Source: a virus. Taken from it: 64,000 nt of DNA. The notes below the pieces were generated by a model. That model saw only the letters and a list, made by a program, of their open reading frames with translations, was not told the origin of the DNA and searched no databases. A program made the position numbers and the translations under genes. The stretch is from the IMG/VR virus record IMGVR_UViG_3300038415_000126, positions 1 to 64,000 of that record; one strand, given 5' to 3'. Positions 5,188 through 58,742 of the stretch are shown here, in pieces; position 1 is the stretch's first letter, and every line of letters starts with the position of its first letter.

Positions 5188-6002
5188 GTCATAACCATGG
5201 TCAGGGGTTCTGGGGATACCCTGAAGTTGACTTGTTGTTCGTACTCGACGGGGAATGAGAGGAAGGGCCCGTCGAGGTACAGGATGCCGTCGCTGACCTT
5301 GGAGATGAGCTTGAAGCTCTTACCGCTTTGGAACCGGTTCAGAGTCTTCCCAGGGGCTCTGTAGGGTTCCCTGATGATGGCTTGAAGCTCCTTGGTCTCA
5401 GGTGGGTAGCTGGTCCCGCCTGCTGACCTCATGGCGCCGGTCGAGCCCGCTCCGGTCCCCACCCAGATCCCAGAGCACCCGTAGCGATCCTGTCCCAGGA
5501 TGAATTTGGTCATAGCGGCAGGGCAAACATGGGAGAATAGGGCCTCATTGAGGACTCGACTGCAGACTACCTCTCCGTCAATTGAGACCTGGAGTCGGGT
5601 GATCTTTTTGACTGAACTCTTGAAGTTCTTGGCAAGAAGAATTCCCCTGACGTCCTCTGCGCGAGCTGCGCAGAGGTAGCCAACCGAGGTCTTGGGATCT
5701 GAGTTGACTCCAAGGATGGGGATGCCCGCGGGGACCTTGTGGGAAGCCGCGAGGAGCGTCCCGTCACCGCCGACCGTGATGACAACCCTAGTATCCTCGG
5801 GAACCTTAAACTCCTTCTCTGGACCGTTGACCACTACGGCTCGGTACTTGAGTTTGCTCAGCTCGTGGAGGACCCTATCAACCGACTTCGAATGCCTTTG
5901 GTGTACCGCAAACGCGCGTTTTGCAGCCGAGGAGTCAGCCACATTGAACTTGAGCTGATCCCAAGTACTACGTTTTAGAATGACAATTGCCTGCTCTCTC
6001 AT
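5184..6002 (-). CDS. nadK: NAD(+) kinase
   Basis: GGDGTLL signature, LNE motif, GTGAGSTGA glycine-rich motif, LDG. Confidence 0.9.
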   Translation of the reverse strand: MREQAIVILKRSTWDQLKFNVADSSAAKRAFAVHQRHSKSVDRVLHELSKLKYRAVVVNGPEKEFKVPEDTRVVITVGGDGTLLAASHKVPAGIPILGVNSDPKTSVGYLCAARAEDVRGILLAKNFKSSVKKITRLQVSIDGEVVCSRVLNEALFSHVCPAAMTKFILGQDRYGCSGIWVGTGAGSTGAMRSAGGTSYPPETKELQAIIREPYRAPGKTLNRFQSGKSFKLISKVSDGILYLDGPFLSFPVEYEQQVNFRVSPEPLTMVMT

Positions 6003-9442: not shown

Positions 9443-10093
9443 CTATATAACCCAGGGTCTTTTGTACCGGCTAGGTCTGAGTATAGTACCGAGTGGTACT
9501 AGTCCTGAGCACCCCTTAGCGTCGAACAGCACCCAACATGGTTTACCGGCGACGAGGGCAGTGAACTTGCGAAGAGCCGGAGAGTAGAATGGTGCTGGAT
9601 CCTTTGAATGCCATCGTTGGCAGGTGGAACACGTTGTGGGTCCGGGAAGACCAGTCCACCCAAAAAAGTCAGGTACCTGCTCGGCGTTCAAGAAGCCCAG
9701 GGCTTCTTTTGAGTAGGCCATCGCAATGTCGACTGTTGTTCTTGCACCCTTACGACACCACAGGTCAATCAGGTCAAGGGTCCCTTCGTAACTTGGACCC
9801 ATGAAGGACTTTGAGTAGCTGACCAAGTTCATCGCTAGTGAGTTGACCATATCGACGATATCCTTCTCAAATCCTGAGATACGGATACGAGGTAGTGTGA
9901 CCTCCAAACTATTCACCTCTCGTGTACACTCAGCTATTCCAGATTCAGACCAGTTAGTAACCCCCAGAAGGCTATGACCTATCTGCCCGTCAGCCCTGAC
10001 TAGGAACACGTCATCTTTGATCTCAACCCTCCTAAGTAACTTGAGTGGATCGTTCCCTTTCCTGGTGAGCGCCCATAACCGAGTGTTCATCAA
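9443..10093 (-). CDS. Hypothetical protein with C-terminal tag
   Basis: Ends RPSRYKRPWVI. Confidence 0.75.
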   Translation of the reverse strand: MMNTRLWALTRKGNDPLKLLRRVEIKDDVFLVRADGQIGHSLLGVTNWSESGIAECTREVNSLEVTLPRIRISGFEKDIVDMVNSLAMNLVSYSKSFMGPSYEGTLDLIDLWCRKGARTTVDIAMAYSKEALGFLNAEQVPDFFGWTGLPGPTTCSTCQRWHSKDPAPFYSPALRKFTALVAGKPCWVLFDAKGCSGLVPLGTILRPSRYKRPWVI

Positions 10094-26824: not shown

Positions 26825-27223
26825 TCAACCACCGTTCATCTGTGGGGTCATGACGTAGTTTGCTTGAGGCTCGAACTCAGTAGCCAGTTCGGGGGCCGTG
26901 TAGATGTACTTTCCGGCTTTGGATTCAAAAGTATCCGTCGGCTTCTTCTGCTTGCAACCCATCCGATTGACCTTGAACGCGAGGAACCCCTTCTTCCGCA
27001 AAGAGTCAAAGTGCTCCTTGGCCGCATCACACTCGGCCTTGTTCTTTCGGTCCCACGAGTACGTCGTATCACCCTCATGGTTCAGCTGAGCCATGGTACC
27101 CGCGATGTCGTCAAGGATCTCCATCAGGTGTTCATCGGCCGCTTGGTTTACAAGCGCTTCACCGAAAGTAGCTACGCAAATCTCAAGGGTATCAGCGAAT
27201 GTCAGATTGGCTTCAGGTTCCAT
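26825..27223 (-). CDS. Hypothetical protein
   Basis: GGTGTA motif 10 nt upstream; ends MNGG. Confidence 0.65.
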   Translation of the reverse strand: MEPEANLTFADTLEICVATFGEALVNQAADEHLMEILDDIAGTMAQLNHEGDTTYSWDRKNKAECDAAKEHFDSLRKKGFLAFKVNRMGCKQKKPTDTFESKAGKYIYTAPELATEFEPQANYVMTPQMNGG

Positions 27224-27306
27224 TCGTGGACTTTACACCGAAAGATAAAGCAAAACAAGTTGGAGCTACGGGCCTTTTGGATTATGAGCGGCTTCCTGCT
27301 GATTCT

Positions 27307-27345
27307 GACACACGCCTGCTAATGATAAATTAGCAGGCGTGTGTC
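27307..27345. repeat. Perfect 17-bp inverted repeat with 5-nt loop
   Basis: GACACACGCCTGCTAAT-GATAA-ATTAGCAGGCGTGTGTC followed by GTTTTT. Confidence 0.9.
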
Positions 27346-27435
27346 GTTTTTATGTTGCAAGCCCAAGTAACTCGTGAGATAGTTCATGAATCACGGAACA
27401 AAGTAGAAAACTGGATCAGATAGTGTATTATTAGG

Positions 27436-27600
27436 GCTCCTCCATAGCCCTTAAGGCGAGGCTATCATGCACTCAGCTAAGTCTGACCCAGAGTGGTTGG
27501 ACCCCATACATTCTCACAATCTGGTCCAGTTTTCTGCTTTGATCCACTGAATATATGGGTTGTGGAGGTGGAGTTGGAGTGAGTAAGTGGCATGTCGTCA
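27436..27600 (+). ncRNA. Candidate tracrRNA / natural single-guide RNA of the Cas12f-like locus
   Basis: GCTCCTCCA (27436-44) complements the repeat 3' ends; ATAGCC/GGCTAT stem; anti-repeat CCCCATACATTC (27502-13); repeat-like GAATATATGGGTTGTGGAGG (27549-68); TATTAT -10-like box at 27426. Confidence 0.6.
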
Positions 27601-27665
27601 ACAAGTCAATTGCCATCGGACTACGGCTCGAAGACTCCCGACGGCCTCTGACACCAGCCTGAGAG

Positions 27666-29639
27666 ATGCGTATGCCTAGTACAAAGCCAAAAGCTGAAGT
27701 AGACCCCGTTGTAGCCGCCACTTCACTATGGTTAGTTGAGGAACTCAGGAATCGAGGGGTTGAAAAGCCTTATGTCAACAAGACCTCTAAGGGGTGGCAG
27801 GTCAAGGATGGGAACAAGCTCATTGGTCGCCCTCGCTCTGAATGGATGGATGAGCGATCACAAGACGCTATTGAGTGTTGTTTCCGTATCCCAGGATCAG
27901 TGACAATCGAACTCGAACCTTGGAGCTGGCATGCTAAAACAGAGGGCGAAGCCGCTGAAGGTCAGCAAGTAGCCCACCAGAAATGGGTGAAGAAGCACAA
28001 GAAAAAGAAGCCTAAGAAGGGCGCAGAGGCGACAGCTACTCAAGATGAAGCCAAGCTCAAGGAGGAGCCGGTAGATCACTACCCAGAACTATTCGAGGTG
28101 ATCCAGCTGGTCACTAAAGGGCAACGAGCTGTAGTCAGATCACTCCTCAAAGAGGAAGGTAGAGAGCCATACCCAGTTTTGGCTGAGGCTATTGGCGCTA
28201 CGGTAGAGCGCGTCCAACTCAAGACCTCGAAGGGCAAGAAGGCGAAAGAGGGTGCTACTCGTAACAAGTTAAGTGACAACCCTCTTTCGGGGAGCTTGAC
28301 CGCTTTTGCTTCTAAACAAGCCTCAGATAAGATGAGGACCTGGCTTAAGAAAGAGGCGGAACAATCTCCACCTTGGTTCAAGGCTAAGAGCCTCCCATTA
28401 CCTAGAGAGTGCTTTGACTTAGTGCTATGCGGACGCGATCTCGATGTAATCCTTACTCTACGAGCAGCTGTCAATGGTCGGTCACCCCACTTGACAGGAA
28501 AAGCTGTTGCAAGAGGCAACTCTCAATGGTCAACCCTTCACAAGATCCTGAAGCCGGGAAGTGAGTACACGATAGGGGGTGCTCGCCTGGTATGGGATGA
28601 TGACCGTTATCGGTTCCAACTTAAGGTGTCCTACTCCTACCCAAGACCAAGCACAAAAGAAGGCGTGGACACTCTTGTAGTCTGCCCTGGTCTGGATTCA
28701 ATCCTACGCCTGTGGGCTAGTAGTGGTCGCGGTGTTGGTAGGGTAGACGACAGCAAGTCTTACTTTGCTCATCGGCTTCAATTCGAAGGTCGGCGGACAC
28801 CTCATAAGCCCACAGCCAAGTCATTGAAACAGCTCAAGGCGTTAGGGAAAGATCCCAACGAGGTATTTATCTACAATGTGAACCAAGATACCCTTCTTCA
28901 GAAGAAGTTGGCTTTCGACGCCAGACGGGGTAGTATGGCTCAACACCTGAACCATCAAGGACGTGGGGCTCGTGGCCACGGTCGAAATCGATTTTTGAGG
29001 ATTAAAACGGAGGTCTCAGAAAAGGAGGCCTTGTTCACCAAGAGCTATTGTGAGCAACAAGCGTCGAGAGTTGCCAAGGTGGCGAGCGGGATGATCTTGA
29101 CTCACGAAGGTTGGGTTCAGAATCGAGAGCCCTATGCTGAGGTGTTACTTCACGATTGGAGCACCCACCTCGCGCATCACCCGGACAAGCGCATTGAGAA
29201 GATCCTAAGACAGTTCCCAAGTGCACTACTCCGTGAGAAGATTATCTGGGCCTTGACCAAGGCTGGAATCAACTACCGAGTACTCAAGGTTGGAACTTCC
29301 CTATGCCCATCTTGCTTGAAAGGGAAGATGGAATTTGACAAGATCTCCGGTAACCACGTTTGCAGCCACGATGACTGTAAACAAGAAGCTCCAAAGGAAT
29401 TCTTGACCGCTTGGGCCACCTTCAGAGCTGGAACGCCGAGCAAGGTGTATGACTACGATGCGGTGAGTGAAAGCTTCCGGAAGGTGATCCGAGACAGCAG
29501 AGCCCGTAAGAATCAAACAACTAACCTGGAAACTTCCGAATCGGAAGCACCTTCAATTGAAGTCCAAGCACCTACCAGAAAGACCACTAGAGATGCAAAC
29601 GCAACTAGAAGAGGTACGTCTCAAGAATCTCATCCGTGA
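27666..29639 (+). CDS. cas12f: Cas12f/TnpB-like type V effector with apparently inactivated RuvC (dCas12f-like)
   Basis: PPWFK..LP; YTIGGARLV...FQLKVSYSYP (WED); GRGARGHGR Cas12f1 hallmark; LREKIIWALTKAGI; CPSC/CxxxxC zinc finger; catalytic positions read C340, H496, E578; adjacent CRISPR array. Confidence 0.85.
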   Translation: MRMPSTKPKAEVDPVVAATSLWLVEELRNRGVEKPYVNKTSKGWQVKDGNKLIGRPRSEWMDERSQDAIECCFRIPGSVTIELEPWSWHAKTEGEAAEGQQVAHQKWVKKHKKKKPKKGAEATATQDEAKLKEEPVDHYPELFEVIQLVTKGQRAVVRSLLKEEGREPYPVLAEAIGATVERVQLKTSKGKKAKEGATRNKLSDNPLSGSLTAFASKQASDKMRTWLKKEAEQSPPWFKAKSLPLPRECFDLVLCGRDLDVILTLRAAVNGRSPHLTGKAVARGNSQWSTLHKILKPGSEYTIGGARLVWDDDRYRFQLKVSYSYPRPSTKEGVDTLVVCPGLDSILRLWASSGRGVGRVDDSKSYFAHRLQFEGRRTPHKPTAKSLKQLKALGKDPNEVFIYNVNQDTLLQKKLAFDARRGSMAQHLNHQGRGARGHGRNRFLRIKTEVSEKEALFTKSYCEQQASRVAKVASGMILTHEGWVQNREPYAEVLLHDWSTHLAHHPDKRIEKILRQFPSALLREKIIWALTKAGINYRVLKVGTSLCPSCLKGKMEFDKISGNHVCSHDDCKQEAPKEFLTAWATFRAGTPSKVYDYDAVSESFRKVIRDSRARKNQTTNLETSESEAPSIEVQAPTRKTTRDANATRRGTSQESHP

Positions 29640-30294
29640 CAGCAAAGCTCCAGAGCTGGTGGAGGGAGAGAGTTGGGCTATAGTCCTAAAGGAGCTAACT
29701 CGCCTAAAGGTAGCTGCTGAGGTCAATGAGGAGTGTATTGTACTCTACCTCTACCAATTGGAGATCGAGGATTCCATTTGGCGGAATGAGTCGGATAGCA
29801 CCAAGTGGAGTTTTGCAACCTTCCTCCGGAAACGTGACATCTACGACCCAACACGATATGGGGACTGCAAGGTAGCTCTCGCACGAACCCCATTGAACGT
29901 GCTGAAGAAGATCGGTCTGAGCGCGGCGGTTCTTGTCACAAAGAAGCTTCAGACGAAGTTCCACACAAAAGGTTTCGACAAGGTAGTTGAGTACATGACT
30001 ACCAACAAGAAGTCCTTCTTGTTGAGGTTGGAGGTTACCCGTCTGATAACCGAAGTTGGGGAAGCCAACCCGGGCTCAATGACGAAGAGGGTAAGGGTAG
30101 ATTCCAGAACTACGGCCAAGGAAGAACTAGTCCAAGCGAACGAGACCATCAAGAAGCTCAAGAAGAGGATTGCGTCCTTGGAGAGTAAGCTCGAAATCTC
30201 TGGGGATAAGAACCGGAAGCTCCAAATTCTGGTTGATGGGTTTAGGTCGGCTAGACGAAGTGGTCCTAAGAAGAGTGGTTCGAGAGCTGCCTAG
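29593..30294 (+). CDS. Unknown basic helical protein with C-terminal coiled coil, overlapping the cas12f-like 3' end
   Basis: ATG at 29593 (the track starts at TTG 29557); lies between the effector and the array leader. Confidence 0.75.
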   Translation: MQTQLEEVRLKNLIRDSKAPELVEGESWAIVLKELTRLKVAAEVNEECIVLYLYQLEIEDSIWRNESDSTKWSFATFLRKRDIYDPTRYGDCKVALARTPLNVLKKIGLSAAVLVTKKLQTKFHTKGFDKVVEYMTTNKKSFLLRLEVTRLITEVGEANPGSMTKRVRVDSRTTAKEELVQANETIKKLKKRIASLESKLEISGDKNRKLQILVDGFRSARRSGPKKSGSRAA

Positions 30295-30552: not shown

Positions 30553-31447
30553 GCCTCAGTGGTTCATTGAGTGTATGGGGATTGGAGCTACCCGAGCACG
30601 CCGTCCCACTTGGCCTCAGTGGTTCATTGAGTGTATGGGGATTGGAGCTAGTTAGGACACGATTCGACGGGGTCGGGGCAGACACGCCTCAGTGGTTCAT
30701 TGAGTGTATGGGGATTGGAGCCGCAACAGCACTTGGCAATGGCGGCTTGAACTGTGCCTCAGTGGTTCATTGAGTGTATGGGGATTGGAGCCGGCTGATC
30801 CACCTTACAGGTAGCCTCGGGGCTCCTGAGCCTCAGTGGTTCATTGAGTGTATGGGGATTGGAGCGGGGTTCGAGAGCGCGAGGAACTCGGGAACTCGTA
30901 TCGCCTCAGTGGTTCATTGAGTGTATGGGGATTGGAGCTGGTTGTTCCGCATTATCGGTGCGACCGGGTCAGGCAAGCCTCAGTGGTTCATTGAGTGTAT
31001 GGGGATTGGAGCTGATTGAACAGGACCACCATGATATTAGAGCCAACGCCTCAGTGGTTCATTGAGTGTATGGGGATTGGAGCCAGATGAAATAGGCGAA
31101 TGGCCCCACCGAGGTGAAGCCAGCCTCAGTGGTTCATTGAGTGTATGGGGATTGGAGCGCAACTGGCTAGTGATTTCCTCGTCGCATTCGGGATGCCTCA
31201 GTGGTTCATTGAGTGTATGGGGATTGGAGCTCAACGATGACGATGAGTTTCGCATACGAGTGATCGTGCCTCAGTGGTTCATTGAGTGTATGGGGATTGG
31301 AGCTCCTCCGAAAGTCACCTCGATTGAGAAGGCAATCGTGGCCTCAGTGGTTCATTGAGTGTATGGGGATTGGAGCTCGTACTGTACCCTGCAGACAGCG
31401 ACATCCGTTGGGCCTCAGTGGTTCATTGAGTGTATGGGGATTGGAGC
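30553..31447 (+). CRISPR. CRISPR array A: 13 identical 36-nt repeats GCCTCAGTGGTTCATTGAGTGTATGGGGATTGGAGC, 12 spacers
   Basis: Repeat starts 30553, 30613, 30686, 30756, 30830, 30903, 30977, 31048, 31123, 31195, 31268, 31341, 31412; spacers 34-39 nt except the first (24 nt). Confidence 0.99.
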
Positions 31448-31482
31448 GATACCGTGGGCATCACAATGGAAGTGCTTCGGAC

Positions 31483-32016
31483 GTGAGAACCTAGGATCAA
31501 GTGTATGGGTGTTGGAGGTCAGGGTGGATGGCCGTCGACGCCACTGCCATGTTTCAACCGATGATTGAATGTATGGGTGTTGGAGGGAGGTTGAGCTACG
31601 CGCGTTAGTTCCGTCGCTAGAATCACGCGGGAACCTAGAATCAAATGTATGGGTGTTGGGGAAATGTCGTTGGTCAGCAATGCCCGGAGGTCTGAGACGT
31701 GGAAACCTGTAATAAAGTGTATGGGTGTTGGAGGAATCCACTGTTTGAACCTATTAAAGGCGCAGCGGATGTTACTAAATGGTCGAGTGTATGGGTGTTG
31801 GAGCACGTACAAGAAAGCTTGGACGACGCGGCGTAGAATGTGGGAACCTGGGATCAATTGTGAGCGTTGGAGGGTGATCATGCCTCTGGTCCAACCTCGA
31901 CCTATCAGGGTGGGAACCTAGAATCAAGTGTATGGGTATTGGAGCACCTCCGTCTCAGGAATAGCTGATGAAACTGCGACGTGGGAACCTAGAATCAAAT
32001 GTATGGGTATTGGAGA
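31483..32016 (+). CRISPR. CRISPR array B: 8 divergent repeats, consensus about GTGGGAACCTAGAATCAAGTGTATGGGTGTTGGAGG, in register with array A
   Basis: Repeat starts about 31483, 31551, 31627, 31699, 31769, 31840, 31910, 31981; unique 32-40-nt spacers; joined to array A by a 35-nt spacer. Confidence 0.9.
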
Positions 32017-58392: not shown

Positions 58393-58742
58393 CGTTCAAG
58401 GACGAATCAGACCTCATCGACCCTCGTGGGCAGGTACCGGTGGACGACCAAAGCGAGGTCGAAGAAGAGGCGGAAGAAGACCAATCACTCATTCCAACAC
58501 TCCCATGCCCTGCTGGGGACCCAACACGACCCACACTACCTAGCATTGAAGTCAGCACAACACGGCAGAACAAGACTGCGCTAACCAATGAGATTGTAAG
58601 ACTTCAACAGGTGTTAGTACACGGCTATCAGAACAAGGCGGCTTCAAAAGAACGTATGAATATATGGGTAAACCTAGGGATCTGTAAGTCCCTACTCAAG
58701 AACCTGAAACAAATGGAAAGCCGAAGAAAACCACGTCAGTGA
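58389..58742 (+). CDS. Hypothetical protein
   Basis: GTGA overlap. Confidence 0.6.
   Translation: MTFKDESDLIDPRGQVPVDDQSEVEEEAEEDQSLIPTLPCPAGDPTRPTLPSIEVSTTRQNKTALTNEIVRLQQVLVHGYQNKAASKERMNIWVNLGICKSLLKNLKQMESRRKPRQ

Follow-up and report, generated by a model that had tools for sequence, protein, structure and literature searches.

A two-site tracrRNA very probably encoded in the leader of a phage-borne Cas12f relative with a degenerate RuvC site

The guide RNAs of Cas12f effectors are held together by two repeat:anti-repeat pairings, a short one that forms a pseudoknot (R:AR-1) and a long one (R:AR-2), as depicted by the structures of Un1Cas12f1. The tracrRNA of SpCas12f1 (156 nt) comprises stem 1, a pseudoknot, stems 2-4 and the repeat:anti-repeat stem 5, and possesses a 'head-to-toe' stem in which its 5' end is linked to the area next to stem 5 (PMC12255294). 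The sigma-E-linked dCas12f dispense with a tracrRNA and use chimeric single guides (Hoffmann et al., Nature 2026, PMC13472631), and the same study mentions in passing a bacterial cluster of array-linked dCas12f, the gRNAs of which were found by covariance. A natural single guide is typified by tracr-L of Streptococcus pyogenes Cas9, a tracrRNA isoform with a repeat-like segment and a short fixed guide that represses the cas promoter (Workman et al., bioRxiv 10.1101/2020.05.21.102756). Within the literature searched, we found no description of a phage-borne, array-linked dead Cas12f furnished with a tracrRNA, nor of a tracrRNA placed in the leader or in the open reading frame (ORF) of its effector; the closest published system to the one reported here is the sigma-E-linked dCas12f of Hoffmann et al. 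(PMC13472631).

The locus that we describe lies in a stretch of 64,000 nt (hereafter the window), which makes up positions 1 to 64,000 of a 98.5-kb IMG/VR virus record (IMGVR_UViG_3300038415_000126; 19% complete as estimated by CheckV). In resemblance to the type V-F1 Cas12f1 systems (i.e. AsCas12f1, SpCas12f1, Un1Cas12f1 and CnCas12f1), it combines an effector of the same family with a multi-stem RNA scaffold, a long repeat:anti-repeat duplex and a second, short contact beside the guide; the RNA is close in size to that of SpCas12f1 (approx. 155 nt vs 156 nt), and its closing stem is the counterpart of the head-to-toe stem (PMC12255294). It is unlike them in that the effector is devoid of the catalytic Asp, accompanied by a conserved partner protein and borne by a phage, in that the RNA resides in the 5' leader of the effector (or, in sister clades, inside its ORF), and in that a solitary repeat handle is found behind the scaffold. 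With the sigma-E-linked dCas12f (PMC13472631), the guide RNAs of which are thought to derive from CRISPR repeats, it shares the status of a predicted nuclease-dead Cas12f relative; those systems, however, are without tracrRNA and mostly without arrays, have a covalently joined guide and a sigma factor as partner, whereas the present one possesses a separate tracrRNA and a 20-spacer array, and the profile of its effector family matches the sigma-E-type dCas12f structure 9n9c far more weakly (E 1.5e-4) than it does the type V-F1 structures. For an uncharacterised family of phage-borne and, by prediction, non-cutting Cas12f that has real spacer arrays and a conserved partner protein, the locus defines the ends of the scaffold, two docking sites and a 20-nt handle, a guide-RNA architecture that can be put to the test.

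Table 1. Features of the locus and of the leader RNA, in positions of the window (L001 and L003 are related loci).
Feature	Position	Strand	Characteristics
Intrinsic terminator of upstream unit	27306-27346	+	18-bp hairpin followed by T-run; conserved in L001 and L003
Candidate promoter	27355-27383	+	TTGCAA (27355-60), 17-nt spacer, TG-extended GATAGT (27378-83)
Predicted tracrRNA scaffold, approx. 155 nt	27391-27549	+	RNAalifold, MFE z-score, covariance model, pair counts
Closing (head-to-toe) stem, 29 bp	27395-27425 with 27515-27545	+	RNAalifold, covariation
Hairpin 1	27433-51	+	RNAalifold
Hairpin 1 loop UCCUCCAUA, short anti-repeat	27438-46	+	pairs with UGGAG, repeat positions 31-35
Hairpin 2	27455-78	+	RNAalifold
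Hairpin 3	27481-27502	+	RNAalifold
Long anti-repeat CCCCAUACAUUC	27502-13	+	single-stranded in multiloop; pairs with repeat positions 17-28
Repeat-like element (solitary degenerate repeat handle)	27549-27568	+	relative of repeat 3' half; GAATATATGGGTTGTGGAG at 27549-67
GGAG-rich segment, supposed guide	27569-27586	+	least conserved part of leader
Pseudogene scrap of 88-aa ORF	about 27585-27640	+	36/39 match (family D6), in-frame internal deletion
Effector gene	27666-29639	+	657-aa ORF, Cas12f family, degenerate RuvC site
Partner gene	29593-30294	+	233 aa, C-terminal coiled coil; conserved; overlaps effector gene end
CRISPR arrays, two back to back	30553-32016	+	start 0.9 kb 3' of effector gene

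The locus is ordered as a strong terminator, the leader with the RNA, the effector gene, the overlapping partner gene and the arrays (Table 1). The first array (A, 30553-31447) contains 13 identical 36-nt repeats and the second one (B) 7-8 repeats, which differ from those of array A in their 5' half and are identical to them in their 3' half. None of the spacers matched the phage's own record or the related loci that were compared (designated by L numbers), and among contigs from four DNA runs only an identical variant or one of the L001 type was seen.

When searched on its own, the effector sequence had no match in Pfam, NCBIfam and PHROGs and gave only a weak match to Cas12f1 in PDB. Six close homologs (57-95% identity) and approximately 100 distant ones were recovered, and a profile of 23 homologs matched the structures of AsCas12f, CnCas12f, Un1Cas12f and SpCas12f with E values from 1e-38 to 1e-19 (the best being AsCas12f 8j1j/7wju, E 1e-38), in an alignment that spans the WED, REC, RuvC and zinc-finger parts. 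In this alignment the intact D-E-D triad of the RuvC site is absent: the family motif VVxPG (Pro341 in the effector) falls on the GIDLG motif of AsCas12f, i.e. the site of the first catalytic Asp, while His496 and Glu578 fall on the second and third catalytic sites. The first catalytic Asp was present in none of the homologs examined (P0002-P0023), and Asp344, three residues past Pro341, is replaced by N or G in the close homologs and by other residues in the distant ones. The loss of the first aspartate, together with the lack of conservation of the nearby Asp344, argues that the effector is a nuclease-dead Cas12f relative, the complex of which should bind DNA rather than cut it. The Cas12r family of Thermus phages, which is active and has no tracrRNA, was discarded as a family for the effector.

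Transcription of the leader would start near position 27390, just past the terminator of the upstream unit. The TTGCA and TGAGATA parts of the putative promoter are invariant in the window, L001 and L003; since it scores only 8/12 to the consensus, below the threshold of the scan tool, we treat it as a candidate. The notion that TTGCA-N-GAGATA is a recurrent phage promoter was abandoned, as the pattern has a single occurrence in the window. We regard it as probable that the tracrRNA derives from the transcript of the effector gene itself, namely from its 5' leader, with co-transcription of the effector gene and subsequent processing of the RNA as presumed steps, and the first approx. 155 nt of this transcript would form three hairpins within a long closing stem.

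The leader is conserved upstream of the effector gene in L001 and L002 (95% protein identity) and in L003 (71%), and RNAalifold produced for the window, L001 and L003 (hereafter the window clade) one common fold with 8 compensatory pairs, accompanied by MFE z-scores of -5.5 (window) and -8.4 (L003). The same architecture emerged from separate folding of each of six loci, despite unrelated closing-stem sequences. A covariance model (R1) built from the window clade, a check on homologous loci that had been suggested in the preliminary description of this DNA, found the same RNA beside distant effector homologs (L007 82 bits, L023 85 bits, L052 56 bits and L012 47 bits), which amounts to seven loci in all (L008 being grouped with L007). 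In the alignment of these loci (A7, seven plus-strand rows) 95.5% of the stem cells are standard pairs, and 30 of the 50 pairs have changed in a compensatory manner on both sides while containing no more than one broken cell each; these counts lean towards the model's own structure, to which the alignment was fitted. As a control, the 3' partners were slid by 1-3 columns, which left 32-44% of the cells paired and 0-5 two-sided pairs; none of 500 column shuffles reached the observed pairing values. Model matches on the minus strand, which arise from the near-palindromic closing stem (51 vs 189 bits), were left out of the counts. The RNA matched no family of Rfam, either at the gathering score or at E values up to 10, a collection that may contain no model for Cas12f tracrRNAs.

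These results amend the preliminary description in several respects. The RNA had been placed at 27426-27600, which is out of register with the scaffold (Table 1); the TATTAT box (27426-31) proposed as its promoter is part of the RNA itself, where it separates the closing stem from hairpin 1, and is absent in the sister clades, and the corresponding TAGAAA-16-TATTAT match is at chance level (0.5 expected), the better candidate being the conserved motif at 27355-83. Likewise, the suggested stem ATAGCC/GGCTAT is broken in L003, and covariation backs instead the stems AGGGC/GCCCU of hairpin 1 (27433-37 with 27447-51) and GGCGAGGC/GCACUCAGCU of hairpin 2 (27455-62 with 27469-78).

The central proposal of that description, namely a tracrRNA with a split short and long repeat:anti-repeat pairing, is strongly supported by covariation across the seven loci. 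The anti-repeat that it had singled out (CCCCATACATTC) pairs over 12 nt, with one G-U, with positions 17-28 of the repeat (GAGUGUAUGGGG), an extent reached by 2 of 2000 shuffled repeats. The long anti-repeat keeps the same register in every one of the seven loci (repeat positions 17-27/28, 9-12 bp), where the loop of hairpin 1 pairs over 5-9 bp with repeat positions ~29-35. The stretch previously put forward as the contact to the repeat end (GCTCCTCCA, 27436-44) falls mostly into this loop, the CUCCA of which complements the UGGAG at the 3' end of the repeat. Both pairings track five different repeat sequences among the seven loci: in the window they are formed by CCCCAUACAUUC with GAGUGUAUGGGG (long) and CUCCA with UGGAG (short), in L003 by CUCAUGCAUUC with GAGUGCAUGAG and CUCCA with UGGAG, in L007 by CCUCUGCAUCC with GGAUGCGGAGG and CUCCACU with AGUGGAG, in L052 by CUUCGCAUC with GGUGCGAAG and UUCCACU with AGUGGAA, and in L012 by CAUCCGCCAAG with UUUGGCGGAUG and CCUUCGAUC with GAUCGAAGG. 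The changes in the hairpin 1 loop are compensatory (CUCCA to UUCCA to CUUCG), and the short pairing is shortest in the window clade (5 bp), longer in L007, L023 and L052 (7 bp each) and longest in L012 (9 bp). In a cross-pairing matrix each anti-repeat paired best with its own or a closely related repeat, with the exception of that of L003 (12 bp with the repeat of the window and L001 vs 11 bp with its own). The tracrRNA makes no contact with the 5' 16 nt of the repeat (i.e. the half that varies between arrays A and B), which explains how array B can swap them. That the short pairing of the window counts only 5 bp is a point against the explanation that we favor.

Taken together, we consider it very probable that the region encodes a genuine Cas12f-style two-site tracrRNA. 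In the mechanism that we propose, the anti-repeat exposed in the multiloop would dock on positions 17-28 of every CRISPR repeat and the CUCCA of the hairpin 1 loop on the UGGAG beside the spacer, and the resulting dual RNA would load a Cas12f-like dimer without the first RuvC aspartate, which may then bind DNA without cutting it.

The sister clades (L007, L023, L012 and L052) have their entire scaffold within the effector reading frame, which is the only frame open there and continues into the conserved protein. Their start codons are situated 7-20 nt before the closing stem (in L012 the motif AAAGGAG ends 7 nt before the ATG), and an N-terminal motif, G-x-L-x-x-P-x-G-E-x-x-x-x-S-A, is shared by 10 of 14 distant homologs. 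L052 retains the nucleotides CUCAGCCAAG and reads them in another frame, which points to a constraint on the RNA. The window clade has, in what was the ancestral frame, a conserved TAA (27452-54), followed by 70-120 extra nucleotides and a new start.

Behind the scaffold, the leader carries the repeat-like element, which had already been pointed out in the preliminary description and which is the only match to the 3' half of the repeat outside the arrays in the 64 kb of the window (3 mismatches, 0.09 such matches expected). No further convincing copy of the repeat was found elsewhere in the 98.5-kb record, and one candidate (G000:81619) was rejected as a chance match inside a coding region. 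The element is a degenerate copy of exactly that part of the repeat which is read by the tracrRNA. Equivalents occur at the same place in L001 and L003, and none was found 3' of the scaffold in L007, L023 and L012. In L003 the element follows the local repeat (GGUGCAUGAGG) and forms 11 bp with the anti-repeat of that locus, a length attained by 26 of 1000 shuffles, which argues for its maintenance, so that it may have a function that is understated here. The elements of the window and L001 carry different mismatches, and the segment at 27569-27596 is 68% identical between the two, with an indel, as compared to 96% for the scaffold; between the window and L003 the neutral flanks are saturated (43-48% identity). 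The scrap that adjoins the supposed guide stems from an 88-aa ORF, of which L001 has an intact version upstream (L001 1341-1607).

Three readings of this element can be ranked, none of which we hold to be probable. The foremost is that the element and the scrap are debris of a rearrangement which parted the tracrRNA from the reading frame, and that occasional gene conversion from the array keeps the element similar to the repeat. This reading, possible though unlikely in our estimate, agrees with the sister clades, in which the RNA lies inside the ORF and the element is missing, and with the conserved TAA in that frame and the downstream start of the window clade, where an insertion of ~70-120 nt separates the stem from the conserved KPK motif. 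The mismatches that differ between the window and L001, the fast evolution of the flank and the presence of the pseudogene scrap next to the element speak in its favor as well; against it stands L003, where, despite saturated neutral flanks, the element still matches the altered anti-repeat of that locus over 11 bp.

Second in rank, and doubtful, is the reading advanced in the preliminary description as a natural single guide. A long form of the transcript would fold the element onto the anti-repeat and become a built-in sgRNA (or supply a solitary crRNA by co-transcription), whose fixed guide, starting near 27569-27581, would take the dead effector to a host site or to one that serves autoregulation. 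The idea is the same as that of the Cas9 tracr-L (bioRxiv 10.1101/2020.05.21.102756), which demonstrates that natural single guides exist, and the sigma-E-linked dCas12f use chimeric single guides thought to be array-derived (PMC13472631). It is further favored by the element itself, which is real, sits at the same place in three loci and follows the repeat of L003, and by an N-terminal over-extension of P0006, which suggests that the element is also present at 60% protein identity. Such over-extensions, seen in P0006 and P0007, give a hint of what the leaders of these two homologs contain. Moreover, L003 has a second solitary handle, a perfect one located 2.7 kb beyond the array and behind a promoter-like motif, and thus solitary guide units may be used in the window clade.

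The fold-back that a covalent guide would need is at odds with the scaffold. The element begins 3 nt past the closing stem and the anti-repeat lies inside this stem, and therefore no fold-back can take place while the stem stands; forcing it removes the covariation-backed stem at a cost of +26.0 (window), +20.9 (L001) and +29.8 kcal/mol (L003). In a pseudoknotted arrangement, a 29-bp helix would hold the handle at its far end, a geometry that appears implausible. The duplex, formerly given as 11 of 13 pairs, is of 10 of 12 pairs in the window and at chance level (-11.7 kcal/mol, reached by 356 of 1000 shuffled leaders, against -19.0 kcal/mol for the array repeat with the same anti-repeat). Furthermore, the mismatches of the handle differ between the window and L001, the supposed guide belongs to the least conserved part of the leader and contains an indel, the adjoining ~27587-27640 is a pseudogene scrap, and the element is missing in L007, L023 and L012, though the scaffold is there. 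The earlier remark that the guide has no target in the window still holds after widening the search: the 98.5-kb record (~19% of the phage genome) contains no match of at least 14 nt, IMG/VR contains no exact 22-mer, and cultured phages gave no blastn match; the single 13-nt match in the record (at 58657, in a coding region) is at chance level. The likeness to tracr-L ends at the same points, since that RNA belongs to a type II system, has a fold-back that fits its scaffold and a known target in the cas promoter, whereas the present fold-back has to compete with a conserved stem, and the available sequence offers no target. On account of the stem clash, the poor conservation of the guide, the pseudogene scrap and the missing target, we regard the single-guide idea as weak. 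Of the preliminary description we thus retain the tracrRNA, whereas the built-in sgRNA with a fixed guide from ~27569 is unsupported as it was formulated (the stem clash, the poor conservation and the absence of the element from sister clades being the reasons), and boundaries, promoter and one stem had to be revised. If the handle works at all, it would do so in trans or after cleavage of the stem, as a weak partner that resembles a crRNA or serves as a decoy; that processing sets free a solitary crRNA acting in trans is possible, and this variant ranks together with the built-in guide.

Last of the three, and improbable, comes the reading that the weak handle and the scaffold form a site for the effector on its own mRNA, where surplus protein would block translation or trigger processing. 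The case for such an autoregulatory mimic is that the scaffold is found in the effector leader here and in the ORF in L007, L023, L012 and L052, so that bound protein would meet ribosomes, that the element is retained in the very clade whose start codon moved downstream, and that an upstream ORF (uORF, 27555-27662) has its start within the handle and its stop 3 nt short of the effector ATG. The uORF, however, is not conserved in L001, and the handle is not needed for binding of the protein to the scaffold. Read-through of the uORF TGA into the effector was dropped, the genes of the window being well delimited under the standard code.

That the region is no RNA gene at all, and that its conservation reflects a decayed N-terminal coding segment of the effector (motif GDLHSPKGEAKKHSAN in homologs), we consider extremely unlikely: although annotation places the region in the translated frame of the effector in P0008-P0022, L007, L023, L012 and L052, such a view is contradicted by 30 covarying base pairs, by two anti-repeats that follow the repeat, by L052, which keeps CUCAGCCAAG with a different reading (AQPS vs HSAN), by core nucleotides far better conserved than the protein (26-39% identical), and by the window clade, which keeps the RNA despite the stop codon.

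The full explanation that we regard as likely is that of a leader-derived, two-site tracrRNA of the Cas12f type that serves a dead effector, with the element at 27549-68 being no covalent guide. A more speculative extension, to which we attach little confidence, is that the effector messenger is at the same time the tracrRNA precursor (through its leader here and through the first 40-50 codons in the sister clades), so that each transcript would be either translated or made into helper RNA, and the effector, by binding its own message, would set its level; the solitary handle would then represent a living intermediate between dual-RNA Cas12f and the chimeric guides of sigma-E-linked dCas12f. 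The placement in the leader or ORF is unusual and, if functional, couples the supply of guide RNA to the synthesis of the effector. The solitary handle found behind the scaffold is relevant to the question, raised for the sigma-E-linked dCas12f (PMC13472631), of how dual-RNA systems collapse into single guides.

A pattern scan of genome contigs returned 120 loci, of which, as judged by the covariance model, only L052 is real; L022 and L119 were rejected as chance matches. L052 is a 4.4-kb contig from a fen that was binned as Armatimonadetes.

Among the sister-clade loci with distant effector homologs (L007, L023, L012 and L052), the effector ORF was found to contain the complete tracrRNA scaffold, with the closing stem located 7-20 nt 3' of the effector start codon, and within the scaffold region the effector frame is the sole open one. 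The scaffold sequence CUCAGCCAAG is kept in L052, but is translated there in another frame, so it is conserved as RNA. In L012, two copies of a 54-nt promoter-like element were also observed, placed ahead of the effector/tracrRNA (2873-2926) and immediately 3' of the CRISPR array (5542-5595).

Coordinates of tracrRNA-, effector- and repeat-associated features
Feature	Locus	Position	Remark
tracrRNA scaffold inside effector ORF	L007	7986-8144	
tracrRNA scaffold inside effector ORF	L023	239-402	
tracrRNA scaffold inside effector ORF	L012	2975-3106	
tracrRNA scaffold inside effector ORF	L052	2237-2424	minus strand
uORF	window	27555-27662	35 codons; start within repeat-like element
Partner gene	window	29593-30294	
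Partner gene	L003	4090-4776	
Partner gene	L010	3188-3919	
Partner gene	L012	4385-5020	
Solitary full repeat handle	L003	9723-9760	region 9700-9800

The uORF of the window shares the effector frame (its TGA stop lies 3 nt ahead of the effector ATG) and is not preserved as an ORF in the related locus L001. Its SKWHV-VNKSIAIGLRLE portion is an in-frame deletion derivative of an 88-aa ORF of L001 (1341-1607), a gene that sits upstream of the tracrRNA and whose counterpart is nearly all deleted in the window (27224-27330 vs L001 1341-1640), where only its last ~30 nt and the terminator are left, adjoined by a minus-strand ORF (26825-27223).

Directly 3' of the effector, all clades harbor a partner gene (211-243 aa, C-terminal coiled coil), the start of which usually overlaps the effector end. 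It had no match in Pfam, NCBIfam or PHROG, and Atlas offered weak leads only (DUF3102 and a ParB-type HTH).

Beyond the array of L003, a locus of the window clade, a solitary full repeat handle was identified at a distance of 2.7 kb, preceded by TTGCAA-12-GAGATA and directly followed by a small ORF beginning ATGAGCATG. The core of this handle is a perfect complement of the L003 anti-repeat. The handle may represent a stand-alone crRNA gene. In the window itself, spacer 1 of array A (30589-30612) measures 24 nt, as compared to 34-40 nt in the other spacers, and one array B unit (31805-31909) conceals a strongly degenerate repeat.
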